Of a stretch of DNA of 64,000 nucleotides, positions 1,847-60,977 are shown piece by piece. The DNA lies in IMG/VR virus record IMGVR_UViG_3300043399_000587, positions 60,790-124,789 of that record. One strand, 5' to 3'. The notes under the pieces were generated by a model. That model was not told the origin of the DNA, searched no databases, and was given only the letters and a program-made list of their open reading frames with translations. The stretch's first letter is position 1, and the number at the start of each line of letters is the position of its first letter. The position numbers and the translations under genes are program-made. This DNA comes from a virus.

Positions 1847-2627
1847 AGCCATACAATTTTAGTATGTGTTCAATGATCTTATGTCTTTGGACATCTTTTA
1901 CCTCAAATTTGCATAGGCTTAGCCCCGGAACTTGATAATGATTTAATTTCTCTATAAGATCCATTAAACCGTTTTGTGCAGTTTTTCTATCTGTTTGTTC
2001 GATATCCCCTGTAATAATTAATTTACTACCCTCACCTATCCTAGTCATGATCATTTTTAGTTGACTTGGGGTGCAGTTTTGTGACTCATCAAGAATAATC
2101 CAGCTATGCTTGAAATTCCTTCCTCGGCAAAATGCTAGGGGTGCAATTTCAATAATTTGTTCTTCTAGCATTGTTTGTATTTCTTTAACTGAGTAATATT
2201 CTTTGAGTACATCTAATAATGGACGAGTCCATGGTTCCATTTTGGCATTTAAATCGCCAGGTAAAAATCCATGCTTCTCATCATCGACACCCACTGCAGG
2301 TCTGGTCAAAATAATCTGATTACATTCTCCTGTTCTTAGAGCCTTAATAGCGGCCTGCATAGCCAAATACGTTTTTCCCGTACCTGCAGGCCCTGAAACT
2401 ACGACAATATCGGTTTCATCGTCTAGAAGGGAAATAATGTATTTTTCTTGGTTGATCGATTTAGGAATAAGTTCGATCGGCTTTCTCAATTTTTTCGGCT
2501 GTGCTTGGCTGAAATCTATTGTTTTCGACTGATTAATATAGAAGGTTTTCGCTTCATTTCTCGGGAACTCTGTATATCTAGATGAATTTTCTTTACTGCG
2601 TAATGCGCCGGTTTTACGTTTGCTCAA
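1845..2627 (-). CDS. phoH: PhoH-like ATPase
   Basis: GPAGTGKT, LTRPAV, GFLPGDL, RGRNF, DESQN, TGDIEQTD; likely TTG start at 2627 after AAGGAG. Confidence 0.92.
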   Translation of the reverse strand: MSKRKTGALRSKENSSRYTEFPRNEAKTFYINQSKTIDFSQAQPKKLRKPIELIPKSINQEKYIISLLDDETDIVVVSGPAGTGKTYLAMQAAIKALRTGECNQIILTRPAVGVDDEKHGFLPGDLNAKMEPWTRPLLDVLKEYYSVKEIQTMLEEQIIEIAPLAFCRGRNFKHSWIILDESQNCTPSQLKMIMTRIGEGSKLIITGDIEQTDRKTAQNGLMDLIEKLNHYQVPGLSLCKFEVKDVQRHKIIEHILKLYG

Positions 2628-2794
2628 GTTGTTCTCCTTTTCTAGAGCTATGAATGCTTTGCATTCAAAAATATTTAAACTACTTGTAGTGCAGGATACT
2701 AGCATACTTAAAACGCAACGATCATAGATAAATATTAGGCTATCCTCTAATTTTTTTGATTTCAACAAATAATCTCTTTAGTGATAAATACTAG

Positions 2795-3424
2795 ATGAAG
2801 AATAAAACCGCAGACAATTTTTTTGACGATATTGACTTTGTAAGTATTATAAGCAACGTCAAGGGTATCATGACCAGTGATGGTTCTATGTCTACATTAT
2901 TGGATTTTGAGCGTGTGCTAGACGAAGCAGATTTATACGCTTTTAAGAATTGGATCTATGGGGAACTAGTTCAAGGTCCGGATTCAGGTAGATATTCAGT
3001 AACATGCACATTCATGTGGCCATATAAATTAATGCCTGATCCTAGTGGTGTGAAACGTCTAGCATCAATTGGATGTAGCATATCTTTTGCTAAAGGTAAA
3101 ATAAAAGTTCCCATTGAAGTTAAAAACTATGATGACTTTGTGCAAGGAACTAGATATCCTAAAGGTGTTGAGAAAAAAGTTTGGTTTGTACAGATTGAAG
3201 TGCCCAAGGCATTAATGAACGAAATCAAAGAAGGTTCTATCGATTTAGCTGATCAAACTATCGACTTAGATGATATTGAAACAGCATACGAAGAAGATTT
3301 AGATAAAGAAAATACTCAGCAATCTGAACAAGATAATCAACAAGGAGCAGGAATGGCTCCAATGGATATGAGTGCGGGTATGCCTGCACTGCCAGCAGCA
3401 CCGGGGGCGGCACCGCCGATGTAA
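2795..3424 (+). CDS. Hypothetical protein with acidic/Pro-rich tail
   Basis: 209-aa ORF; TAAATA 4 nt upstream. Confidence 0.8.
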   Translation: MKNKTADNFFDDIDFVSIISNVKGIMTSDGSMSTLLDFERVLDEADLYAFKNWIYGELVQGPDSGRYSVTCTFMWPYKLMPDPSGVKRLASIGCSISFAKGKIKVPIEVKNYDDFVQGTRYPKGVEKKVWFVQIEVPKALMNEIKEGSIDLADQTIDLDDIETAYEEDLDKENTQQSEQDNQQGAGMAPMDMSAGMPALPAAPGAAPPM

Positions 3425-28352: not shown

Positions 28353-28562
28353 ATGGCAAAACCTGATATTAAACCTAATCCTCGTGTTAATCAAATTTTT
28401 GAGGACTTAGAAAAGTATCTTGAATTCTGTAAGACTTATGGTTATAAGTTTGACGAAGCCGAGATATACAATAATAAAAGTTTTATATATCGACAGTTTA
28501 CTAAATATCTTACAGGAAAACCTGTAAAAGATATGTGGGAAACTGATGCTAAAACCGAATAA
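28353..28562 (+). CDS. Hypothetical protein
   Basis: 69 aa; AAGGAG RBS. Confidence 0.7.
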   Translation: MAKPDIKPNPRVNQIFEDLEKYLEFCKTYGYKFDEAEIYNNKSFIYRQFTKYLTGKPVKDMWETDAKTE

Positions 28563-29316
28563 AGTTGTACTGGTGACCGGAGGATTTGATCCTATTCACT
28601 CCGGTCACATCGAGTATTTCAAAGCAGCAAAAGAATTGGGAGACATTCTAGTAGTAGGACTTAATTCTGATGCATGGTTGGCCCGTAAAAAGGGCCAACC
28701 TTTTATGCCATTTATAGAACGACACAGTATTATCGAACATTTGTATATGGTAGATCATTGTATCATTTTCAATGATAATGACGACTCTAGTATTGAGGCG
28801 ATTAAAAATGTAAGAATGCTATATCCAGACTGTGAAATAGTTTTTGCCAACGGCGGTGATCGAACTAAAGAAAACATACTCGAAATGCAACACCAAGATT
28901 CAAATCTAACGTTTGAATTTGAAGTGGGTGGAGCTATTAAAAAAAATAGTTCTAGTTGGCTGTTACAAGAATGGAAAAATCCTAAATACAAACGGCCATG
29001 GGGATGGTATCGGGTACTAGATGACAAACCTGGTTATAAAGTAAAAGAATTAGTTATAGAACCGGGTGAAAAACTAAGTATGCAACGTCACCTTTTACGA
29101 TCGGAGCATTGGTATGTTCTTAAGGGCAAATGCGATGTTGCAACTATATACAATAATGTTAAAATGACAATCACAAAGGAAGTAAACGAAACCTACATCA
29201 TTGGGCAAGGTGTTTGGCATCAAGGTCAAAATAATTACGCTGACCCGTGTCATATACTAGAAGTTCAATATGGTCTACGTTGTGTAGAAGAAGATATAGA
29301 GAGAAAAGATGCGTAA
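28546..29316 (+). CDS. Cytidylyltransferase (RfaE-II-like) fused to mannose-6-P-isomerase-type cupin
   Basis: TGGFDPIHSGH, FANGGDR, KNSSS; RPWG, LSMQRH..RSEHW. Confidence 0.85.
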   Translation: MLKPNKVVLVTGGFDPIHSGHIEYFKAAKELGDILVVGLNSDAWLARKKGQPFMPFIERHSIIEHLYMVDHCIIFNDNDDSSIEAIKNVRMLYPDCEIVFANGGDRTKENILEMQHQDSNLTFEFEVGGAIKKNSSSWLLQEWKNPKYKRPWGWYRVLDDKPGYKVKELVIEPGEKLSMQRHLLRSEHWYVLKGKCDVATIYNNVKMTITKEVNETYIIGQGVWHQGQNNYADPCHILEVQYGLRCVEEDIERKDA

Positions 29317-30487
29317 ATTATTTTATATGGGACTTGAGCCCTACAAAGCTAGATATACACTACAATTGCAAGATTGGAACGTAGAAGTTTTTAAACGTAG
29401 AAAAATTAACTACGTTGTTGTACCCGGTGAAACACTTAGCAATGACAAGGCTATCGTGACTGGCCAAGTATTAGATGCACATGGGCGTACCTATTTCGGT
29501 ATGAGCCAACTAATGAATTTAGTAAAAATGATGAAGCACGGGGAAGTTACTAATGAAGATGTTATCTACTTTGAGGACATGTTTCAGCCCGGTATCGAAA
29601 GCTTACCTTATATACTCAATCAAGTTCCTAGTGATTCATGTCCCCGTATCTATGTTCGCTGTCTTGCTCAGTCCATTGATCCTGATGATTTTGTGCATGT
29701 ATGGGGTATGGCGAAGTGGATGGGACACTACGAAAAAATGGTTAATGAGTTCGTGGACGGAGTTCTCGCCACGAACGAAGAAATGGTTGCTCATATGCGT
29801 ATTGCTGGATGGACTGCTCCTATTTACAATATTAGCGGTTTAGCATTCGGTAAAAATGAAGTTGTTAGTCGTGTAGAAAAGTATGTACCTTTTCATGAAC
29901 GTAGGAATCGAGTAGTTTTTTCTGCACGTTGGGATCAAGAAAAACAACCAGATTTTTACATGGATCTTATTGAAGCTTGGCACAAGCGTCACCCTAATCA
30001 AAATATTACGTTTGCTGTATGTAGTGGCGGAAAATTAAAAAGCAACAACGATAGTTACATGAAGCGAACTAGAAAATTACAAGATGAAGGTAAGCTTTTC
30101 GTATACGAAGATTTAGAAAAAAATGATTACTATGATATTGTCAACAACAGTAAGGTAGTGTTCAATTGTGCGTTACAAGATTGGGTTAGTAATACAGTAA
30201 GCGAAGCCGATGCACTTGGTTGCAATGTATTATATCCTGCATATCGTAGTTTTCCCGAAACATTCGCCAATGATCATGAGCGCATGTATATTCCATGGTC
30301 TATAGATGACGCATTAAACAAGTTAGAGCAATTGATCAAGAGGCCACATCCTAACATTGGAAAGATCAGCTCTTATAACAATAGTACTATAGATAGGATA
30401 TGTGATATCCTTGAAGGTAAAGGGGACAAATATCTTAGAATGTCGTCAGATTATAGAAAACACACACGAGAATCAAAATATGCTTGA
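29309..30487 (+). CDS. GT-B glycosyltransferase
   Basis: [28 protein letters not shown]. Confidence 0.7.
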
Positions 30488-30504
30488 CAATTGTAGGAAA
30501 AATA

Positions 30505-31611
30505 ATGCTCATAGAAAATGAACCAAAGTTAGATTTCAAAGATGTTCTTATTAGGCCAAAGCGTAGTACGCTTAGCAGTCGCAAAGAGGTTGATTTAAAC
30601 CGCACGTATAAATTTAAACATAGTGGATGGGAATGGACTGGTGTCCCAATCATGGCTGCTAACATGGATGGAGTAGGAACTTTTAATATGGCAGAAGCAT
30701 TACAAGAACATAAAATGTTTACTTGTCTTGTTAAAAGTTATGTGCTGAATGATTTTATCTATATGCAAGAACTTATCAATGGCAAGCATTTTGCTGTTAG
30801 TACAGGGACCAGCGATCACGATTGGTCTAAATTACAACAAATTCTAAATGCATTTCCAGAATTTCATTTTATTTGCATTGACGTAGCAAATGGATACAGT
30901 GAACACTTTGGAGATTTTGTTGCTAAAGTTCGTGCTAGATATCCCAAACATACAATCATTGCTGGTAATGTTGTTACGGCAGATATGACACAGGAGTTAA
31001 TTTTACGTGGCGCAGATATTATTAAAGTTGGTATTGGGCCTGGTAGTGTTTGTACTACTCGTATTCAAACTGGGGTGGGCTACCCACAACTTAGTGCTAT
31101 TATTGAATGTGCCGATGCTGCTCACGGTCTTGGTGGTCATATTGTGGCTGACGGTGGATGTACTTGTCCTGGTGATGTTGCTAAAGCTTTTGGTGCGGGT
31201 GCTGACTTCGTAATGCTAGGTGGTATGCTAGCTGGGCATGACGAGGGCGGTGGAGAAGTAATTACAAATCATTTTAAAACCAATGAAGTCCTAACCAAAG
31301 AAGTTGATAAAGATGGTATTATGCTAATTCATAACTATAAAGTTGAAGAAAAAAAGTTTGTTCAATTTTACGGTATGAGTAGTGATACTGCAATGGAAAA
31401 ACATCACGGTGGTGTAGCAAGTTATCGTAGTAGCGAAGGACGCACTGTAAAAATTCCTTACCGAGGCAAAGTAAATGATACTGTATTAGATTTGCTAGGT
31501 GGATTGCGTAGTGCTTGTACTTATGTGGGTGCCCCTACACTAAAACAACTTAGTAAATGTACCACTTTCATTAAAGTCAACAGACAAATTAATGATGTTT
31601 TCTTAAAGTGA
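30505..31611 (+). CDS. guaC: GMP reductase
   Basis: [50 protein letters not shown]. Confidence 0.93.
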
Positions 31612-31692: not shown

Positions 31693-32370
31693 ATGTATAA
31701 ACTTTATCAAATAACCAATACGATTAACGGAAAATCGTACATAGGTATCACAAAACTCTCAATACATGAAAGATGGAATGTTCATGTATCCAATTCAAGA
31801 AAGCCCAAATATCCAATACATCATGCTATAGCAAAATATGGGCATGAAGTATTTATTATTAAATTGCTTGAAGAAAGTGAAGACCGCAACCTTATTTCTT
31901 CTTTAGAAGAATCAACTATTCGGCAATTAAAAACGCATATAACACAACAAGGGTATAATATTGCTAAAGGTGGCTTCGGCGGAGATTTAGGTCTAGTTGT
32001 AAATCATAAAAGAAAAGAAACAATAAAAAATCTAAGCCCAGAGAAGAAACAAGAATGGACTAAGAATCTTAGCATGGTAAGAATAGGAAAGAAACATTCT
32101 ACCCAAACTAAGGAAAAAATGTCTAAGTTACAAAAAGATCGAGGCGGGTACGGTCCTGAAAAACATTCAGCCTCAACTAAAGAAAAAATCTCAAAGGGTA
32201 ATAGAGGAAAAACTCGTTCAGAAATCTCTAGACAACACTATAGAGAATCTGCTAAAATAAGAGGAACTGGCCCTCAATTACAAGGTAAAAAAGTTAGTTG
32301 CCTTTGCTGTAATAGAGCATGGGATTTAGGTAATTTCGCACAGCACATAAGGAAAATAAATGAGTTTTAA
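31693..32370 (+). mobile_element. Free-standing GIY-YIG homing endonuclease with NUMOD3-like repeats
   Basis: LYQITNTINGKSYIG, GYNIAKGG, KHS..TKEK.S repeats; overlaps folE start. Confidence 0.85.
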
Positions 32371-33040
32371 CAAACAAAAAACAGACCCTGCACTAGGATT
32401 AAAAGTACATGAACATTTGGTTAAAATGGGAGTAGAAACGCCAACTGTTGTTAATGGATTGAGCCGAACAGACAAAATAGATATTATTGAAGCAAAATTT
32501 ACAGACATTATGAAGGCATTAGGTCTTGATTTGACTGATGACAGCCTAATTGAAACTCCTAAGCGAGTGGCAAAAATGATGGTAACCGAAACAATGTGGG
32601 GATTAGACTACGAGGCTTTTCCTAAGTGCACAACAGTAAATAATAAGATGAAGTATAACGAAATGGTGGTAGAAAGAAATGTCTCAGTTCAAAGCAATTG
32701 TGAGCACCATTTTGTTGTTATTGATGGTCTTGCTACTGTGGCATATGTCCCTAAGGATAAAGTTCTGGGACTATCTAAAATCAATCGTATCGTAGAATAC
32801 TTTAGTAAGCGCCCACAAATTCAAGAGCGGCTAACCGAGCAGATTTTTCACACATTGCAGTTTATTCTTGAAACTGAAGATGTTGCTGTTATGATTGACG
32901 CGCAACATTATTGTGTCAAGAGCCGAGGCGTAGAAGATACTGGAAGTTCTACTGTCACAAGTAGATTGGGCGGTGGTTTCAAAACAGATCAAGCAGCCCG
33001 AGCAGAGTTTCTTAATATTGCTATGAAGGGCTGCAAGTAA
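32360..33040 (+). CDS. folE: GTP cyclohydrolase I
   Basis: ETPKRVAKM, CEHH, GLSKINR, QIQERL, HYCVKSRG. Confidence 0.95.
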   Translation: MSFNKQKTDPALGLKVHEHLVKMGVETPTVVNGLSRTDKIDIIEAKFTDIMKALGLDLTDDSLIETPKRVAKMMVTETMWGLDYEAFPKCTTVNNKMKYNEMVVERNVSVQSNCEHHFVVIDGLATVAYVPKDKVLGLSKINRIVEYFSKRPQIQERLTEQIFHTLQFILETEDVAVMIDAQHYCVKSRGVEDTGSSTVTSRLGGGFKTDQAARAEFLNIAMKGCK

Positions 33041-33463: not shown

Positions 33464-33931
33464 ATGATTTTCAACAGAGTTAAAGACCTTAAGGATCAAG
33501 GTAAAAGAATTGGTATAACGTTTAGCCAATTTGATTTGCTTCATGCAGGGCATATTGCTATGTTGGCTGAAGCTAAAAACCACTGTGATTATCTTATTGC
33601 AGGATTACAAAACAATGCAAATTGGGATCGCCCTGAAAAGAATGCACCCATTCAAAGTATTGTTGAAAGGCAAATACAATTAGCTGCGGTTAAGTTTGTA
33701 GATGAAATTGTCGTGTATAATACGGAAAAAGACTTAGAAGATATACTATTGACATTACCCGTAGATGTGCGTATACTAGGTGTTGAGTACATGGAGAAAG
33801 ATTTTACAGGACGAGCGATATGCGAGAAGCGAAAAATAGAACTTATATTCAATGGTCGTGATCATAGTTTCAGTAGTTCTAACCTACGCAAACGTGTTGC
33901 AGAAGCTGAACAAAATAAAAACAGTAAATAA
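33464..33931 (+). CDS. TagD-like cytidylyltransferase
   Basis: FDLLHAGH, VDEIV, FSSSNLR. Confidence 0.85.
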   Translation: MIFNRVKDLKDQGKRIGITFSQFDLLHAGHIAMLAEAKNHCDYLIAGLQNNANWDRPEKNAPIQSIVERQIQLAAVKFVDEIVVYNTEKDLEDILLTLPVDVRILGVEYMEKDFTGRAICEKRKIELIFNGRDHSFSSSNLRKRVAEAEQNKNSK

Positions 33932-33935
33932 AGAT

Positions 33936-33978
33936 AGCGGTCTAGGGCATTCATCCCGCTTTACAAATTCTGCATGTC
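33936..33978 (+). ncRNA. Candidate preQ1-I-like riboswitch in queD leader
   Basis: AGCGG/CCGCT stem, loop ending CAUC, ACAAA tail; directly after TAAATA (33925). Confidence 0.45.
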
Positions 33979-34010
33979 ATCAAACTTGCTACTTTTAAAG
34001 GAGACTAGAG

Positions 34011-34526
34011 ATGGCAAACTTACAACCAATAGCTTACAAATATGTGAGCACAAAAGAATATCACGATGCGTTTCCGTGTGCATATCGCCAATGGCGTGCT
34101 AATAGTCATTGTAATCTTATACACGGTTATAGTTTCAGTATGAAATTCTATTTTGGTACAAATGAGTTAGATGTTCGTAACTGGGCTATGGACTACGGTG
34201 GATTAAAAGAATTAAAGAAAATTCTTGAGGATCAATTTGATCATACACTACTAGTTGCAGAAGACGATCCGGAATTAGAAACATTTAAGATGTTACAAGA
34301 AAAGAAGTTGGCTAAACTTACCATACTTCCTAGATTGGGATGTGAGGGCTTAGCTGATATGCTTTACAAATACGTAAACAGTGTATACATCCCAGACATG
34401 TTGGGTGAGCATGAAGCAACTAGATTGTGGTGCTACCGTGTAGAGGTTCGTGAGACACAAAGCAATATGGCTTTCCGTGAAGGTCACCGCGAATGGAATG
34501 AGGACTTGTCTGAAGGATTTGAGTAA
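34011..34526 (+). CDS. queD: 6-carboxy-tetrahydropterin synthase
   Basis: HCNLIHGY, DYG, FDHT, GCEGLA, VRET. Confidence 0.85.
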   Translation: MANLQPIAYKYVSTKEYHDAFPCAYRQWRANSHCNLIHGYSFSMKFYFGTNELDVRNWAMDYGGLKELKKILEDQFDHTLLVAEDDPELETFKMLQEKKLAKLTILPRLGCEGLADMLYKYVNSVYIPDMLGEHEATRLWCYRVEVRETQSNMAFREGHREWNEDLSEGFE

Positions 34527-34550: not shown

Positions 34551-35636
34551 ATGCATTACGTATTGAAATCTCAATCTGAGTATGCGTTATCCGAATCAGT
34601 GTTAAAAAACTACGGCTGCACAAAACTTTCAAATTATTTTGAAATTCACACTAATGGAAATATTAGTTTGTGTTGTTATACCTGGCTTCCTGTTTTTTGC
34701 GGTAACATTCTAGAAAATTCACCTGAAGAAATATTAAACAATACAAAAAGGTTGAAATTGATTGACGACATGAGTAAAGGAGAGTATACCGAGTGTAATG
34801 ATCATTGCCCTTATATTAGTGCTACGTTAAACGGCAGTAGATATCCATCTGAATGGGTAGTTCCAATAAATAGTTTTAATCAAGAAAAAAACATCAAACC
34901 TTATGTCATAGGATTAAGCTATGATACATCGTGTAATTTACAATGTCCAAGTTGTCGAAATAGCCTACAATTTTTTCAACTCGATGAAAATAAAAAATTA
35001 TCCGAGATTCATGAGAAAACAAAACAGTTTATTGATTTCTTATTGGCAAAGGGTATAAGCCTGATAATCGTTATTAGTGGTAGTTCTGATCCTTTTGCAG
35101 GACCCACATTTTGGAATTACTTGAAAGAGTTGTCTTTAAATCCTGAATCGGATATTAGATTACAATTAATAACCAATGGCACTTTAATGACACAAACTAA
35201 GCTACTAGAAATAAAACCTTTATTACCAAAGATAACACAAATTACTTTAAGCATAGATGCCGCTGATGAAACTACGTATAAAATAGTACGTAAAAATGGA
35301 TCTTTCAGAAAGTTAGAAGAAAATGTAAAGAATCTCAATGATTTAATTTCAAATGGGTTTTTACCAAATCTCAGAGTATTAGTATCTACATTTGTTGTCC
35401 AAAAGAGAAATTTTAGGGAAATGAAGGAATTTATATTGTGGCAATTGTGTTATAATAACATACACAAAATTTATTTTTCTGCAGTAGCACAATGGGGACA
35501 CATTAACGATATTGATTTTCAACTAAATTTTTGTCTTAATGAAGAAGAAAAAATAGAATTGAAAGAAATCTTGAAGGATCCAATATTTTCTCATCCTAAA
35601 GTTATGTTGGGTAATGTACTTAGTCTTATAAAGTGA
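34551..35636 (+). CDS. Radical SAM protein with N-terminal SPASM/twitch-like domain
   Basis: CNLQCPSC, TNG, SIDA; N-terminal C...GNISLCC...GN. Confidence 0.8.
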   Translation: MHYVLKSQSEYALSESVLKNYGCTKLSNYFEIHTNGNISLCCYTWLPVFCGNILENSPEEILNNTKRLKLIDDMSKGEYTECNDHCPYISATLNGSRYPSEWVVPINSFNQEKNIKPYVIGLSYDTSCNLQCPSCRNSLQFFQLDENKKLSEIHEKTKQFIDFLLAKGISLIIVISGSSDPFAGPTFWNYLKELSLNPESDIRLQLITNGTLMTQTKLLEIKPLLPKITQITLSIDAADETTYKIVRKNGSFRKLEENVKNLNDLISNGFLPNLRVLVSTFVVQKRNFREMKEFILWQLCYNNIHKIYFSAVAQWGHINDIDFQLNFCLNEEEKIELKEILKDPIFSHPKVMLGNVLSLIK

Positions 35637-35640
35637 ATAT

Positions 35641-36492
35641 ATGAATCAAATTAAAGTTAGCGAATTGTTCTATTCAATACAAGGAGAAGGCAGATACATG
35701 GGTGTACCTAGTGTCTTTCTTCGAACATTTGGATGTAATTTCAAATGTGCAGGATTTGGCATGCCCAAAGGACAATTGAGTGAGGAGAGAATACAAGTTG
35801 CGCAATCCATAAAAACTTATAAAGATTATAAATCCCTACCACTTGTCAGCACAGGATGCGACAGCTATGCATCTTGGGACCCAGCTTTTAAACATCTTAG
35901 TCATTACTATAGTACCGCTGATATTGTTACTAGGATTATGGATTTACTTCCTAGACACAGTTGGCAAGATGAGCACTTGGTTATTACGGGCGGCGAACCG
36001 TTACTAGGATGGCAACAGTTGTATCCTGAATTACTAAGTCATCCAAACATGTTGCCTCTTAAAGAATTGACATTTGAAACAAACGGAACACAAGAGTTAG
36101 GTCCAGAACTTAAAAAGTTTTTTCAAAAGCAATGGCATAAACAGAAGGGTCTTGAGACTATTACATTTAGTGTTAGCGCAAAACTTTCTAGTAGCGGAGA
36201 GAAACGTGAAGATGCTATCTGTCCTGAAGTTGTGCGTGAGTACGAAATGTATGGACATGCATATTTAAAGTTTGTTATTGCTACGCAAGAAGATATTGAA
36301 GAAGTATTAGAAGTAGTAGACATTTATCGTAAGTCAGGTTTTATGGGTAACGTCTATGTCATGCCAGTAGGCGGAGTAGAGAAAGTTTACAATATGAATA
36401 ACAGAAAAGTGGCAGGGTTTGCAATGAAGCATGGTTTGAGATATAGTGACAGACTTCAAGTACCTCTTTTCAAGAACCTTTGGGGTACGTAA
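35641..36492 (+). CDS. queE: 7-carboxy-7-deazaguanine synthase
   Basis: ELFYSIQGEG, FLRTFGCNFKC...CD, ITGGEP, ETNGT, SAKL. Confidence 0.9.
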   Translation: MNQIKVSELFYSIQGEGRYMGVPSVFLRTFGCNFKCAGFGMPKGQLSEERIQVAQSIKTYKDYKSLPLVSTGCDSYASWDPAFKHLSHYYSTADIVTRIMDLLPRHSWQDEHLVITGGEPLLGWQQLYPELLSHPNMLPLKELTFETNGTQELGPELKKFFQKQWHKQKGLETITFSVSAKLSSSGEKREDAICPEVVREYEMYGHAYLKFVIATQEDIEEVLEVVDIYRKSGFMGNVYVMPVGGVEKVYNMNNRKVAGFAMKHGLRYSDRLQVPLFKNLWGT

Positions 36493-37087: not shown

Positions 37088-37290
37088 TGGAAACACATAA
37101 AAGAACAATAGCTAGAATGATTAGCTATCGTATTACAGCCTGGTTATTCACTATATTATGGACATATATGTTTACAGGAAACATCGGGCAAGCGACAGGT
37201 TTTGCTACTGCATTACATATTTTACTGAGTGTCGATTATTATATTCATGAACGAATTTGGCTTAAAATTAAATGGGGTAAAACAGAGTGA
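37087..37290 (+). CDS. DUF2061-like small membrane protein
   Basis: ETHKRTIARMISYR...YYIHERIW. Confidence 0.75.
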   Translation: METHKRTIARMISYRITAWLFTILWTYMFTGNIGQATGFATALHILLSVDYYIHERIWLKIKWGKTE

Positions 37291-38624
37291 AGACTTATCA
37301 AAAACGGATAGGATTCTTGGTTAGTTATCAAACACTAATTCCACATGGTGGTATTGGTCAATTTGCAAAAAGTTTTTGCGAGTTAATGGATGAATACAAT
37401 ATCAAGGTTGATATCATAACAGATAAAGAACCTAAAGATAATGAATTCGTAAAGTCATTGAAGGCAAACATCATTGCACCACTTAGTTCATTGCCATATA
37501 CTGACCATAGCAATATCTTTATGTATGGTGATACGTTTTGCTATGAGCGTATGGTTAACTTTCGAAATGCTATCATAGAAGCACTAGAACACAACCTATA
37601 TGATGCTTTTATCTGTAATACATACGAATCTATACAGGTAGCATTAACAATGGGTCTTGAAGATTGTATCCAAGTAATAGCTTATACACATTTAGAAAGT
37701 CAAATCTTCAAAGATACTAAGAATCCATTTTTACATTCTACTAACGACATGATGCGTAAGCAACTTGAATGTAACAGTTTATGGATTGGAACACAAAGTA
37801 AATTTAATCAAATCTCAATGAGCAATGGATCATGGTATCTTCCTATCCCCATTACTGAAAGAGCATTGCTAGAAGAATATAAAGGTCATCGTGAGGGTGT
37901 ACTATTTGTAGGTCGTTGGGAAGAAGGAAAGAATCCTGAACTATTCATTGACTTGATAGAACAAACAAAGTTACCTGCTAAGGTAATGACTAGCCCCAAT
38001 GGTGTGAAGAAATTTGAAGACCGACTAAAAAAGATTGGCGTTTCTTATGATGTACGTGCCAGTATTGTAGGACAAGAGAAAGTAGACTTTATCAAGAGTT
38101 CACGCATTGCATTTAATCCTAGTATTGTTGAAAGCTATGGTATGGCGTTCTACGAACAGCACATACAATTGCCCACACTAGTGTTAGAAAATCAACGTTG
38201 GACTAATAACTTCAATGAGGAGTTTTTCTATAAATGTACTAAAAAGAACATGGCACAAAAGGCACTAGAATTGTATGAGAAGTTTGAAAAACCAGAAACT
38301 TACTACAGTTTGGGTGCATTAGAACATGCCAACTCTATAGAGAAAAGAGCATTTCATCGTTGGAATGATTGTTTTCATGAGTTTTCAGCAAAACAGTCAA
38401 ACACTAATACGGCAAAAATTTGTCAGGAAACTACAGTAAAGCTACAAGATTACATCAGAGAACTAAATCGTAAAATTATTTGTATTGATGATATTCGTAG
38501 TGTGTTAGCTAACAAACACAAATTTCGTGTCATCTATACTGACGAAGATACATATTTGACCAAAGACCCTAACTTTGAACCCAAAGAAGAAGTAACGGGC
38601 TTGGCATTATTTGAAGAAATGTAA
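37287..38624 (+). CDS. GT-B (GT4-like) glycosyltransferase
   Basis: GGIG, LFVGRWEEGKNP, PSIVESYGMAFYE. Confidence 0.8.
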   Translation: MKTYQKRIGFLVSYQTLIPHGGIGQFAKSFCELMDEYNIKVDIITDKEPKDNEFVKSLKANIIAPLSSLPYTDHSNIFMYGDTFCYERMVNFRNAIIEALEHNLYDAFICNTYESIQVALTMGLEDCIQVIAYTHLESQIFKDTKNPFLHSTNDMMRKQLECNSLWIGTQSKFNQISMSNGSWYLPIPITERALLEEYKGHREGVLFVGRWEEGKNPELFIDLIEQTKLPAKVMTSPNGVKKFEDRLKKIGVSYDVRASIVGQEKVDFIKSSRIAFNPSIVESYGMAFYEQHIQLPTLVLENQRWTNNFNEEFFYKCTKKNMAQKALELYEKFEKPETYYSLGALEHANSIEKRAFHRWNDCFHEFSAKQSNTNTAKICQETTVKLQDYIRELNRKIICIDDIRSVLANKHKFRVIYTDEDTYLTKDPNFEPKEEVTGLALFEEM

Positions 38625-39451
38625 TGAAGAAGATTTTAATTACGGGCAGCGCAGGATACATAGGTTCACATTTATGTGATATGTTGATGGGAGAATATGA
38701 AGTTCACGGACTAGATATTGCACCACAAAAAGTAGAGATAGATAAATTTTACAACATCGACATTAATAAACAATTTTTAATCGATGGTATAGAGTTTGAT
38801 GCAGTCATACATCTAGCTGCACTAACCAGTGTAGGTGAAAGTCAAGAAAGGCCAATCAGCTATTACATTACTAACCTAAACGGCACAATGAATGTACTAA
38901 ACAAATGTAAGACAAAGAATTTTATATTTGCAAGTACAGGAGCAGCACAAGATTGTCTAAGTGCCTATGGTGTTAGTAAACGTGCAGCAGAAGATGTAGT
39001 TCGTGCATATACAAAAATGGCAGGGGCCGAGTATACAATCTTTAGATTTTATAATGTAATTGGTTCTACTGTAACAATGCCGACGAATCCTGATGGATTG
39101 TTTTATAATTTAAACAAAGCACGTGAATCAGGATCTTTTACTATATACGGCAATGATTACCCTAACACTAGCGACGGTACATGTGTACGTGATTATTTGC
39201 ACGTAGAAGAAGTTTGTCATTCTATCAAGATGGCTATAGAGAAACCTGCCAATAACACAGAATGCTTAGGACACGGTGTAGGATATACAGTTAGAGAAAT
39301 AGTAGATTTATTCCAACGTGTCAATGATTGTGACTTTGATATTGTCAAAGGTCCTCGTCGTGATGGTGATATTGAATACTATGTGTTAGAGAACGTAAGT
39401 CCGTATATGAAAAATCTATACTCTATCGAGGATTTGTTAAAGATACAATAA
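38624..39451 (+). CDS. NAD-dependent sugar epimerase (GalE-like)
   Basis: TGSAGYIGSH, HLAA..VGES, YGVSK, RFYNV, DGTCVRDY. Confidence 0.9.
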   Translation: MKKILITGSAGYIGSHLCDMLMGEYEVHGLDIAPQKVEIDKFYNIDINKQFLIDGIEFDAVIHLAALTSVGESQERPISYYITNLNGTMNVLNKCKTKNFIFASTGAAQDCLSAYGVSKRAAEDVVRAYTKMAGAEYTIFRFYNVIGSTVTMPTNPDGLFYNLNKARESGSFTIYGNDYPNTSDGTCVRDYLHVEEVCHSIKMAIEKPANNTECLGHGVGYTVREIVDLFQRVNDCDFDIVKGPRRDGDIEYYVLENVSPYMKNLYSIEDLLKIQ

Positions 39452-42705: not shown

Positions 42706-43701
42706 ATGAATTACGCACTCATTGATACTGCAAACACTTTCTTCCGTGCCCGACACATTGCCAGTCGCAATAGCGATACTTGGGAAAAAATCGGTATGGC
42801 CCTACATCTCACACTAGCAAGTGTGAACCAAGTAGTTCGCAATCACAAGATTGACCACGTTGTATTCTGTCTGGAAGGCAGATCATGGCGTAAGGAATAC
42901 TACAAGCCATACAAAGCCAATCGTAAACTTGATGAGTCGGTTATGACCGACACAGAAATCGAGGAAAACAAAATGTTCTGGGAAACGTATGAAATGTTTA
43001 CTACATTTCTGCGTGAGAAGACCAACGTGTCTGTACTGCGTGAACCCAACGCTGAGGCAGATGACTTAATTGCCCGATTTATTCACCTGCATCCCAATGA
43101 CTCGCATTACATTATTAGTTCTGATACTGATTACGTTCAGCTTATTGATGAAAACGTGTTCCAATACAATGGCGTATCAAACGAACTCATCACACTCAAT
43201 GGGTTCTTCAAGGACAACGGAAAGCCTGTACTAGATAAAAAAACTAAGCAACATAAATTGCTAGAAGATCCGCAATATCTACTTTTCAAAAAGTGCATGC
43301 GAGGTGATGCCACTGACAATGTATTCAGTGCTTATCCTGGTGTTCGTGAGAAAGGTAGCAAGAACAAAGTTGGTCTTGTCGAGGCTTATGCTGATCGTAC
43401 AAAGCAGGGTTTCAACTGGAACAACATGATGCTACAACGTTGGTTGGATCACGATGGTGTTGAACATCGTGTGCGTGAGGATTATGAACGCAACCGTACA
43501 CTGATTGATTTGACTGCACAGCCTCAGGATGTAAAGAATCGTGTCGATACTGCAATTCGTCAGGGTGTACGTATTGAAACTACTCCTCAAGTTGGTGTTC
43601 ACTTCATGAAATTCTGTGGCAAGTATGAACTGACCAAAATCAGTGAACAAGTCGAAACGTATGCTAAGTGGCTCAACAATCCATATAAAGGTTCTTTGTA
43701 A
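42706..43701 (+). CDS. rnh: T4 RNase H-like 5'-3' exonuclease
   Basis: LID, WRK..Y..YKANR, EADD, SSDTD, GDATDNV. Confidence 0.9.
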   Translation: MNYALIDTANTFFRARHIASRNSDTWEKIGMALHLTLASVNQVVRNHKIDHVVFCLEGRSWRKEYYKPYKANRKLDESVMTDTEIEENKMFWETYEMFTTFLREKTNVSVLREPNAEADDLIARFIHLHPNDSHYIISSDTDYVQLIDENVFQYNGVSNELITLNGFFKDNGKPVLDKKTKQHKLLEDPQYLLFKKCMRGDATDNVFSAYPGVREKGSKNKVGLVEAYADRTKQGFNWNNMMLQRWLDHDGVEHRVREDYERNRTLIDLTAQPQDVKNRVDTAIRQGVRIETTPQVGVHFMKFCGKYELTKISEQVETYAKWLNNPYKGSL

Positions 43702-50807: not shown

Positions 50808-51524
50808 ATGTATAAATGGATAATTTACAAAACAACTTGTCTACAAAATAACAAAATCTATGTAGGGCAGCACAAAACTAAAAATATAAATGATGGCTAC
50901 ATGGGCTCAGGTAAACTAATTAGACGAGCATTTGAAAAATACGGAGTTGATAACTTCACTTGTGAAATATTATGTGAGTGTGATAGTAGAGAAGAAGCAT
51001 GCCTTCGTGAGGAGTACTGGATCGATACTCTAAAATCCACTGACCCTGAAATTGGTTATAATATAACGAAATACGCATGGGGCGGTCAGCCTCACACCGA
51101 AGAAACTAGAAAAAAATTATCTGACTTGAACAGGGGAAAACCAAAGACGGAAGAGTTCAAGAAAAAACTTAGAAAGCCAAAATCATCAGAGGCAATAGAA
51201 AACATGAAAATTGCAGCCGATGCGGCAAAGAAAAAAAGAATAGGTAAAAAATGGTATCATAATCCAACTACCTTAGAATCTAAACAATTTAGTTCAACTG
51301 AAGAAATTCCCAGCGAGTGGCTTCGAGGAAGAGGAAACACTCAAAAAGTGGGCGGAGATAGAAAGAAAAAAATATACTCAGATGAAGGACTTAGAAACAT
51401 ACAACAGGCCGCAAAAAACGAAGACAGAAATAAAAAAATATCCGATTCGTTGTTGGGACATGAAGTAAGTACAGAAACTAGAAATAAAATAAGTAAGACA
51501 CTATTGACAAATAATAAAAAATAG
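50808..51524 (+). mobile_element. GIY-YIG (Seg-like) homing endonuclease
   Basis: IYKTT...KIYVGQH...YMGSG, GYNI, HTEETRKKLS; TATAAATA at 50782. Confidence 0.9.
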
Positions 51525-60744: not shown

Positions 60745-60977
60745 TGGATCATCAATATCTATATGTACCGGATATGGCTTATGGAAAAGAGCGCAGGAAG
60801 TTCATCAAAGATTGGTTTACAGCACATCCAAACGGCATGTATGCTGTCAATTGCAAATATCGTCCTCAACTGAAAGATGATCCCGATTTGAAAAAACTAA
60901 TCCGTATTGGTTTTTTGAAGATAGTAAGAGAACATACATATGCGAAACACGCACGAACTTATTTGGTGAAAGCATGA
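60741..60977 (+). CDS. Hypothetical protein
   Basis: Coupled ORF. Confidence 0.6.
   Translation: MMDHQYLYVPDMAYGKERRKFIKDWFTAHPNGMYAVNCKYRPQLKDDPDLKKLIRIGFLKIVREHTYAKHARTYLVKA

Follow-up and report, generated by a model that had tools for sequence, protein, structure and literature searches.

The stretch of viral DNA analysed here (the window, 64,000 nucleotides in length, corresponding to positions 60,790–124,789 of IMG/VR virus record IMGVR_UViG_3300043399_000587) carries a queD-like gene whose leader contains a short RNA element with the pairing pattern of an H-type pseudoknot. Comparison with the leaders of related phages, on sequence evidence, identifies this element as a real, conserved and covarying queD-leader pseudoknot, beyond a chance hairpin. 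The 3′ strand of the pseudoknot runs into a predicted hairpin that covers the translation start site of queD. We hold it somewhat more probable than its converse that a ligand stabilizes the pseudoknot and thereby turns translation of queD, together with that of the queE-like gene behind it, ON.

Fold and conservation of the queD-leader pseudoknot

The stop codon of the upstream open reading frame (ORF; 33464–33931) and the ATG of the QueD-like protein (34011) are separated by 79 bases. Within this interval, residues 33936–33978 form an H-type pseudoknot consisting of two paired regions, P1 (AGCGG/CCGCU), which closes a hairpin loop of 15 nt, and P2 (GGCAU/AUGUC), together with the connecting segments L1–L3. 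An earlier reading of the window (the original prediction) had proposed a preQ1-I-like riboswitch at this site, and the features that it listed (TAAATA, a 5 bp stem, a loop ending in CAUC, a tail and AUGUC) can all be read from the sequence. The features of the site are as follows.

33925–33930, + strand: TAAATA promoter-like box, 5 nt 5′ of P1, overlapping the TAA stop codon of the upstream gene
33936–33940, + strand: P1 5′ strand AGCGG, pairing with 33956–33960
33941–33945, + strand: L1, UCUAG; in the family as a whole, N-C-U-U plus a variable linker
33946–33950, + strand: P2 5′ strand GGCAU, pairing with 33974–33978
33951–33955, + strand: L2, UCAUC; C33955 takes the place of the preQ1-I specificity cytosine
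33956–33960, + strand: P1 3′ strand CCGCU, pairing with 33936–33940
33961–33973, + strand: L3, UUACAAAUUCUGC, an A-rich part followed by the conserved YUCUGC
33974–33978, + strand: P2 3′ strand AUGUC, pairing with 33946–33950
33976–33981, + strand: 5′ arm of the start-site hairpin, GUCAUC, overlapping the P2 3′ strand by 3 nt
33998–34003, + strand: Shine–Dalgarno (SD) sequence AAGGAG, read from the sequence (AGGAG at 33999–34003)
34010–34015, + strand: 3′ arm of the start-site hairpin, GAUGGC, including the queD start codon (34011–34013)
34011–34526, + strand: queD-like 6-carboxytetrahydropterin synthase gene, the putative regulated gene (PF01242, 1.2e-16; phrog_2389, QueD-like, 6e-38)

Taken on its own, the window sequence has no significance. 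The single minimum free energy (MFE) fold of 33925–34020 has a z score of −0.32, with 76 of 200 shuffles folding as well or better; pseudoknots are invisible to MFE folding. The structural assignment is carried by three sets of related sequences. Set A1 comprises 53 distinct aptamers obtained through the closest QueD relatives in a viral contig collection (the best 80 of 591 confirmed relatives, with 84–95% identity). Set A5 comprises 54 new distinct sequences plus the window and was drawn from the first 80 loci retrieved with a strict DNA pattern that spans L2, the P1 3′ strand and L3 and that matches at least 120 stretches in the viral collection. Set A6 comprises 48 distinct sequences obtained through a second clade of QueD (the L096 type, 44% identical to the QueD of the window; best 80 of 533 stretches) and was aligned with a covariance model without the P1 pairs.

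In the three sets, 91–94% of the cells assigned to pairs are paired, versus 72% in shuffles and 35–55% with slid partners. For A1 the value is 92.3%, compared with 72.2% in shuffles (none of 500 reaches the observed value), and falls to 35–51% when the partners are slid by 1–3 columns; the covariation score is 0.500, compared with 0.153 in shuffles, and eight of the ten pairs show changes on both sides. A5 gives 91.2% paired cells and a covariation score of 0.477 versus 0.151. P2, with a length of 4–5 bp, is paired in 82–89% of cells across the sets (88.7% in A6) and all five of its pairs covary; G-U pairs are frequent there (for example, GU:8 to GU:12 at single pairs), which fits an RNA read from the + strand. 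P1 is paired in 100% of cells in A1, 100% in A5 and 99.6% in A6 (with three, one and four of its five pairs covarying, respectively), the 100% figure being partly a matter of construction in that the 5′ strand of P1 was located in A1 and A5 by required complementarity. This procedure, and the fitting of the P2 columns of A6 to the model, weigh against taking the pairing figures at full value; the caveat on the P1 of A1 is answered by A5 and A6.

The comparison of queD leaders from related phages that the original prediction had proposed thus yields a conserved, covarying element in all three sets, and the stem GCGG/CCGC, which had been read as a compensatory version, turns out to be one among several. 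The P1 versions in A1 are AGCGG, AGUGG, AGAGG, UGCGG, UCCGG and ACCGG, each with a matching 3′ strand, and A6 adds AGUCG/CGACU and AUCGG/CCGAU. The closing pair of P1 is GC throughout (53 of 53 in A1, 55 of 55 in A5 and 48 of 48 in A6). Two pseudoknots had been envisaged. The pairing of GGCAU with AUGUC is the covarying P2, while that of UCUAG with CUAGA is fully complementary in one of 56 platform-distinct sequences, namely the window, the others offering 0–4 of the five pairs. A further candidate, a helix between UCUGC and the P1 5′ strand, was rejected, being broken by the AGAGG and UCCGG variants on inspection by eye.

The element is linked to queD. In the fuzzy-core search, which covered 80 loci and the window (81 sequences) and fixed the length of L3 at 13 nt, it was found 5′ of queD in 78 of 81 sequences, 77 of these 78 with a perfectly complementary P1. 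The covariance model adds L024 and L064, each with a 1 nt insertion in L3, and the 5′-truncated L032, in which the 5′ strand of P1 is lost; L045, with an upstream sequence of only 34 nt, cannot be judged. In the second clade, the model matches an element directly 5′ of queD in 79 of the 80 loci. Among the matches listed for the strict pattern, P1 is perfect in 119 of 120 stretches and tblastn places QueD directly downstream in 114 of 120 (among at least 120). In the same 120 loci, L142 and L178 carry QueD variants recognized by eye, a single additional ORF separates the element from QueD in L160 and L169, and L199 and L219 were not assigned a QueD; in L199 a homing-endonuclease-like ORF appears to be inserted between the element and the expected queD. 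The gene upstream differs among loci (FolE, a nucleotidyltransferase or no recognized gene) and the element stays with QueD. The 125 kb record of the phage itself contains a single copy, and queD (34011–34526) is the sole PTPS-family gene in that record.

Many unpaired positions are conserved in A1 (n = 53). The first position of L1 varies (U in 25, A in 15 and C in 13), the second is C and the third U in 48 of 53 each. L2 reads UCAUC in 41 of 53 and its last base is C in all 53; the base before this C is U in 47, C in five and A in one. L3 has the 13 nt consensus N-U-A-N-A-A-A-Y-U-C-U-G-C, in which A3, A5, A7, U9, C10 and G12 are invariant (53 of 53) and C13 is present in 52 of 53.

A promoter-like box lies 1–12 nt before P1 in 49 of 61 distinct upstream flanks. 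In 29 of the 61 this is TAAATA, at 1–11 nt before P1 with a mode of 5 nt, as in the window; we take this box to resemble the T4 late promoter. In another form, found in 20 of 61 flanks, a σ70-type −10 hexamer is situated 4–12 nt before P1, in many cases with TTGAC ∼17 nt upstream. Neither type was found in 12 of the 61 under the criteria used. The location of these boxes just 5′ of P1 puts the element, as judged from predicted promoters, right at the beginning of the queD(–queE) mRNA.

Expression platforms and the predicted switch

The 56 platform-distinct sequences fall into three unrelated designs, types a (24 sequences), b (24) and c (8). In type a, which includes the window, GYCRUC pairs with GRUGRC and the second strand holds the start codon. 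In type b, CCUAUG pairs with CAUAGG, and the latter extends over the initial bases of AGGAG. In type c, UGYCAUUG pairs with CAAUGGCA over the start codon. RNAalifold recovers the helix of each type with hardly any broken pair; for the 24 sequences of type a it gives six pairs, none of them broken, in agreement with the single-sequence MFE fold. The pair formed by the base that precedes AUG is C-G in type a and U-A in type c, a change on both sides at once. In every type the 5′ arm of the hairpin starts 2–4 nt inside the 3′ strand of P2, so that P2 and the hairpin are mutually exclusive. Since the hairpin that uses this common strand lies over the start site, formation of the pseudoknot should open the start site, which implies an ON switch. 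The original prediction had seen in the element a means to tune precursor supply; taken as feedback repression, this is at odds with the expression platforms, which instead point to activation on pseudoknot formation.

To model the competition, the pseudoknot was represented by a proxy in which the P2 strands are blocked, with the mean unpaired probability as readout.

Type a, SD: 0.31 in the free fold, 0.72 with P2 blocked
Type b, SD: 0.26 in the free fold, 0.63 with P2 blocked
Type a, AUG: 0.08 in the free fold, 0.38 with P2 blocked
Type c, AUG: 0.00 in the free fold, 0.62 with P2 blocked
Type b, AUG: 0.52 in the free fold, 0.36 with P2 blocked (the opposite direction)

For the window, the unpaired probability of the SD sequence rises from 0.37 in the free fold to 0.82 with the P2 strands blocked. 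The free fold is 5–8 kcal/mol more stable than the pseudoknot proxy and the P2 duplex of the window amounts to only −2.6 kcal/mol, so that the default state is expected to be closed and something that stabilizes the pseudoknot would be needed to open it.

In the mechanism that we favour, a small ligand with a guanine-like face would bind between P1 and P2, as in preQ1-I, and would stabilize the pseudoknot, with the invariant C of L2 possibly reading the guanine-like face by analogy. With ligand, the start-site hairpin would be blocked from forming and translation would be ON; without ligand, the more stable hairpin would win and the start site would be closed. Candidate ligands are 7-carboxy-7-deazaguanine (CDG), 7-deazaguanine (DG), preQ0 and preQ1, or the precursors guanine, GTP, dihydroneopterin triphosphate (H2NTP) and other pterins; of these, a precursor or an intermediate suits an ON switch better than an end product does. 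A bolder interpretation, to which we give rather less than an even chance, is that the element represents a new riboswitch class specific to phages, related to preQ1-I by descent or by convergence, whose pocket has been remodelled, whose specificity has changed and which turns translation ON. Such a class would gate the queD–queE step in jumbo phages by a precursor or intermediate (guanine/GTP, a pterin, CDG or 7-deazaguanine).

Several observations weigh against a ligand-operated ON switch of this kind. Compensatory change within the hairpins is nearly nil, being limited to one pair in type b, the rest of the changes being G-U transitions. Part of the 3′ arm of types a and c falls in the coding sequence (AUG GCA), and coding constraint may account for some of its conservation. 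The AUG of type b responds to the blocking of P2 in the opposite direction, and in the window the proxy state permits another hairpin that still lies over the AUG. Two contact positions of preQ1-I, those like U6 and A30, are both unkept, the U in L1 being variable and the A before P2 being replaced by C. Were the ligand the end product of the pathway, it would be hard to see why biosynthetic genes should be preceded by an ON switch. Lastly, the Rfam preQ1-I model (RF00522) finds nothing at E ≤ 10 at the window copy in searches of 351 nt and 56 nt and in a single-family search of the genome; the preQ1-I likeness claimed by the original prediction therefore holds for the H-type pseudoknot fold and fails for membership of the window copy in the Rfam family.

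These points leave room for other explanations, one of them being a chance hairpin or a terminator of the upstream cytidylyltransferase-like gene. It would account for a 5 bp stem right after a stop codon and for the single-sequence z score given above, but there is no U-tract 3′ of the stem, a terminator scan gave no call there, and the element stays with queD and covaries strongly in three sets while the upstream gene differs among relatives. The comparative data refute this explanation, to which we assign a negligible probability. A pseudoknot that works without a ligand or by binding a protein, whether as an autoregulatory operator on the model of the 5′ pseudoknot in T4 gene 32 mRNA, a folding element, a thermometer or an ion sensor, is a more serious candidate. 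Protein, temperature or Mg2+ could drive the competition between pseudoknot and hairpin, the record carries T4-type replication genes (DNA polymerase, phrog_262; clamp loader; RNA ligase) and, in the portion of a 2017 survey that was available, riboswitches are described as seldom found in phage genomes (PMC5473149). However, the number of invariant unpaired positions (UCAUC in L2; A3, A5, A7 and UCUGC in L3; CU in L1) is typical of a pocket or a tight tertiary core, the layout agrees, position for position, with that of a known ligand-binding fold, and the element keeps company with queD through changes of the upstream gene, with no candidate partner protein known. We regard a role of this type as improbable.

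The element could also be a divergent but genuine preQ1-class riboswitch that binds preQ1, preQ0 or CDG and represses queD–queE by feedback, the hairpin being otherwise employed. It has the preQ1-I fold with its G-C floor, an invariant C at the specificity position, mostly after U, and an A-rich start of L3, and it precedes a 7-deazaguanine biosynthesis gene, where repression by the end product is the usual logic; the terms ‘ON switch’, ‘activate’ and ‘upregulat’ are absent from the retrieved text of a 2024 preQ1 review (PMC11625349). RF00522 is, moreover, the only Rfam family to align to the copy of a relative: a search of five relatives' records matched L003 alone, whose copy is of the AGAGG type, at 11.6 bits, with model positions 6–32 covering P1, L1, L2 and the first bases of the tail. 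Set against this are the low RF00522 scores (0–11.6 bits versus a gathering cut-off of 39 bits), the loss of the U6 and A30 equivalents, the extra invariant UCUGC in L3 and the location of the SD sequence at least 20 nt downstream of P2, outside the pseudoknot. Above all, the three platforms share the P2 3′ strand with a hairpin that blocks initiation, so that the pseudoknot should open the start site. A repressing preQ1-class switch is thus unlikely in our view, and a ligand-stabilized pseudoknot that turns translation ON remains the interpretation that we prefer.

Distribution and genomic setting

The carriers of the element are a large group of uncultured jumbo (giant) phages and include contigs of 353–382 kb that CheckV rates as 98–100% complete; the record to which the window belongs (124,789 nt) is rated as 36% complete. 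No RNA data set was listed for it, and one run showed a share of 0.05 of the sampled words. In bacterial and archaeal genomes, the strict pattern matched 18 stretches, compared with ∼17 estimated by chance. Only three of these are full-length model matches (39–55 bits), located 5′ of queD on small contigs of metagenome-assembled genomes (MAGs), and the other 15 are partial chance matches, some of them within coding sequence. The three copies in the prokaryote collection (L088, L096 and L099) lie on contigs of 5–8 kb in Bacteroidota MAGs (Crocinitomicaceae and Chitinophagales). Strong SD sequences and TTGAC/TATAAT promoters such as those before the element would be unusual for Bacteroidota. In L096, queD is followed by a gene for a flavin adenine dinucleotide (FAD)-dependent oxidoreductase with a DAO-like N-terminus (2071–3021) instead of queE.

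A search of cultured-phage DNA with 1.2 kb around the element matched nothing, and a search with the 49 nt aptamer at E ≤ 10 gave only three partial chance matches. The element is absent from the queD leaders of seven cultured phages that have related QueD genes (ACP17, X1, R5C, Motura, Phosso, PhiXhv-15 and Me-ZS1), most of which have little or no queD leader. The best model score in these leaders is 7 bits; the top match overall in the cultured phages, at 13.6 bits, is on the minus strand of ACP17, ∼570 nt 5′ of queD.

Two further features of the carriers were observed. In L280, L282, L285 and L286 a second, incomplete copy of the element (794–833; 20.4 bits) is situated ∼640 nt 5′ of the full one. 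In this copy a σ70-like promoter is followed by P1, with L1, the P2 5′ strand and L2 between its two strands; L3 is missing, GUGUGC and the leader of a further small ORF come directly after, and the whole looks like a duplication of the promoter and the 5′ half of the element. The N-terminus of QueD is highly variable (in L007, L014, L028, L036, L056, L070, L219 and others), with extensions of 8–35 residues of several unrelated kinds behind the same leader and start-codon context.

On the 5′ side of the element in the window, the gene order is glycosyltransferase, GMP reductase, GIY-YIG homing endonuclease, FolE, a small ORF and nucleotidyltransferase. QueD follows on the 3′ side, succeeded by a twitch/SPASM radical S-adenosylmethionine (radical-SAM) protein, a QueE-like protein, a second glycosyltransferase-like protein and a GalE-like epimerase. 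The genes closest to the element and to the 7-deazaguanine pathway are the following.

32360–33040, + strand: folE (GTP cyclohydrolase I), 5′ of the element and outside its control
33464–33931: upstream ORF, cytidylyltransferase-like/nucleotidyltransferase
34551–35636, + strand: twitch/SPASM radical-SAM gene between queD and queE, present in one of 80 related loci
35641–36492, + strand: queE-like radical-SAM gene (phrog_2076, 1e-50), found 3′ of queD in many loci

The queE-like gene is probably co-transcribed with queD, and the twitch/SPASM gene may represent either a recent insertion or an accessory step. Around FolE, QueD and QueE (28546–31611 and 37287–39451) lie the genes for GMP reductase and for two HldE-domain-II-like nucleotidyltransferases, one of them fused to a cupin domain, as well as the two glycosyltransferase-like genes and that of the GalE-like epimerase. 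This neighbourhood suggests purine recycling and perhaps a sugar-bearing modification. The window contains two GIY-YIG homing endonuclease genes, at 31693–32370 and 50808–51524.

Residues 34–40 of QueD read CxxxHGY in all five aligned phage QueD-like proteins, one of them that of a cultured phage in which the preQ pathway is complete. The QueD signature is given as CxxxHGH in the retrieved part of a study of phage 7-deazaguanines (PMC10516641); the CxxxHGY of the phage proteins differs from the DpdL signature LxxxHRHxF. Neither the phage's own record nor five large relatives gave a convincing match to QueC (PF06508) or to a transglycosylase (PF01702). Three near-complete relatives (353–382 kb, 98–100% complete) have no Pfam transglycosylase (TGT) and no convincing QueC, and tblastn searches with two uncharacterized ORFs gave no lead to DpdA. 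As far as the available text of the same study goes, phages with FolE, QueD and QueE but without QueC make CDG-derived bases such as 2′-deoxy-7-deazaguanosine (dDG), by a route in which DpdL is the candidate decarboxylase and DpdA3 a remote transglycosylase that HHpred alone had revealed (PMC10516641). Because DpdA3 is reported to be detectable in this way only, the empty Pfam searches do not establish that DpdA is absent.

Relation to known riboswitches and leader elements

Our literature searches turned up no account of a riboswitch in the 7-deazaguanine clusters of phages. The word ‘riboswitch’ is absent from all the papers that one of them listed, the main ones on phage 7-deazaguanines among them, and the term ‘phage’ is absent from the searched text of the preQ1 family review (PMC11625349). 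In its available part, the 2017 survey allows that phages may use undiscovered classes and gives as examples of phage riboswitches two of the c-di-GMP-I and two of the glutamine class (PMC5473149). The element is abundant, with two QueD clades (591 and 533 stretches) and nearly constant presence in the best 80 loci of each. It is small (∼45 nt, of which the pseudoknot takes up 43), has a well supported secondary structure and stands close to one of the best understood small aptamers, and its ligand and pocket could therefore be quickly resolvable; the likelihood that experiments would set it apart as a class is substantial. If it is indeed an ON switch of new specificity, it would exemplify the rewiring of a minimal pseudoknot aptamer, provide a compact new part for synthetic biology and reveal the means by which phages time their supply of 7-deazaguanine bases. 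As a new ON class it would be without precedent as a riboswitch devoted to a viral 7-deazaguanine pathway and would be unlike every known preQ1 riboswitch in sign.

The closest known system is preQ1-I. As described in the part of the review consulted, this is an H-type pseudoknot in which the pocket has a G-C floor and is lined by a U in L1 and the terminal A of an A-rich L3; a strictly conserved cytosine precedes the 3′ strand of P1, after U in type I or after A in types II and III, and the SD sequence lies within or beside P2 (PMC11625349). The phage element likewise is an H-type pseudoknot with a 5 bp P1 whose loop pairs with a 3′ tail. It has a G-C pair closing P1, invariant in all three sets, an A-rich start of L3 after P1 and a place ahead of a 7-deazaguanine/queuosine gene, and its C before the P1 3′ strand (53 of 53), mostly after U (47 of 53), fits the ‘UC’ rule of type I as given there (PMC11625349). 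The differences begin in L1, which is longer (N-C-U-U plus a linker) and has no conserved U at its first base, the U6 equivalent thus being lost. They continue in L3, which at 13 nt is twice as long, ends in the invariant UCUGC and has C instead of A before P2 in 52 of 53 (the A30 equivalent). Finally, the SD sequence is at least 20 nt downstream of P2, a separate hairpin shares the P2 3′ strand, the platform predicts ON rather than OFF and the element is a feature of phage contigs only. The sequence comparison suggests that the element resembles preQ1-I around P1 and L2 and probably works alike there, while its 3′ half differs.

A scan of the whole window at the Rfam gathering cut-offs returned no family. 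The best RF00522 match in the genome of the phage (43225–43253; 18.1 bits, E = 0.02) falls inside the ORF of a 5′–3′ exonuclease (42706–43701) and was dismissed as a chance match, all 14 control genomes giving sub-threshold matches of the same sort. The element is a relative or a look-alike of preQ1-I and not a detectable member of that family.

Other systems share single aspects. The preQ1-II and preQ1-III riboswitches are also pseudoknotted 7-deazaguanine sensors that control translation, but they have HLout folds with embedded hairpins and another pocket, according to the consulted part of the review (PMC11625349). Their Rfam models gave no match at E ≤ 10 in the 351 nt and 56 nt searches against all 4227 families. 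The leader of T4 gene 32 mRNA is a 5′ H-type pseudoknot that controls translation; it is bound by protein and has short loops. That leader is not known to have an alternative hairpin with a common strand or to resemble the present element in sequence. The adenine (add) riboswitch, a translational ON switch whose ligand binding has been shown experimentally, has a three-way junction aptamer. The aptamer folds are unrelated; the likeness lies in the predicted logic, in which the bound aptamer claims a strand of the helix that masks the start codon or the SD sequence.

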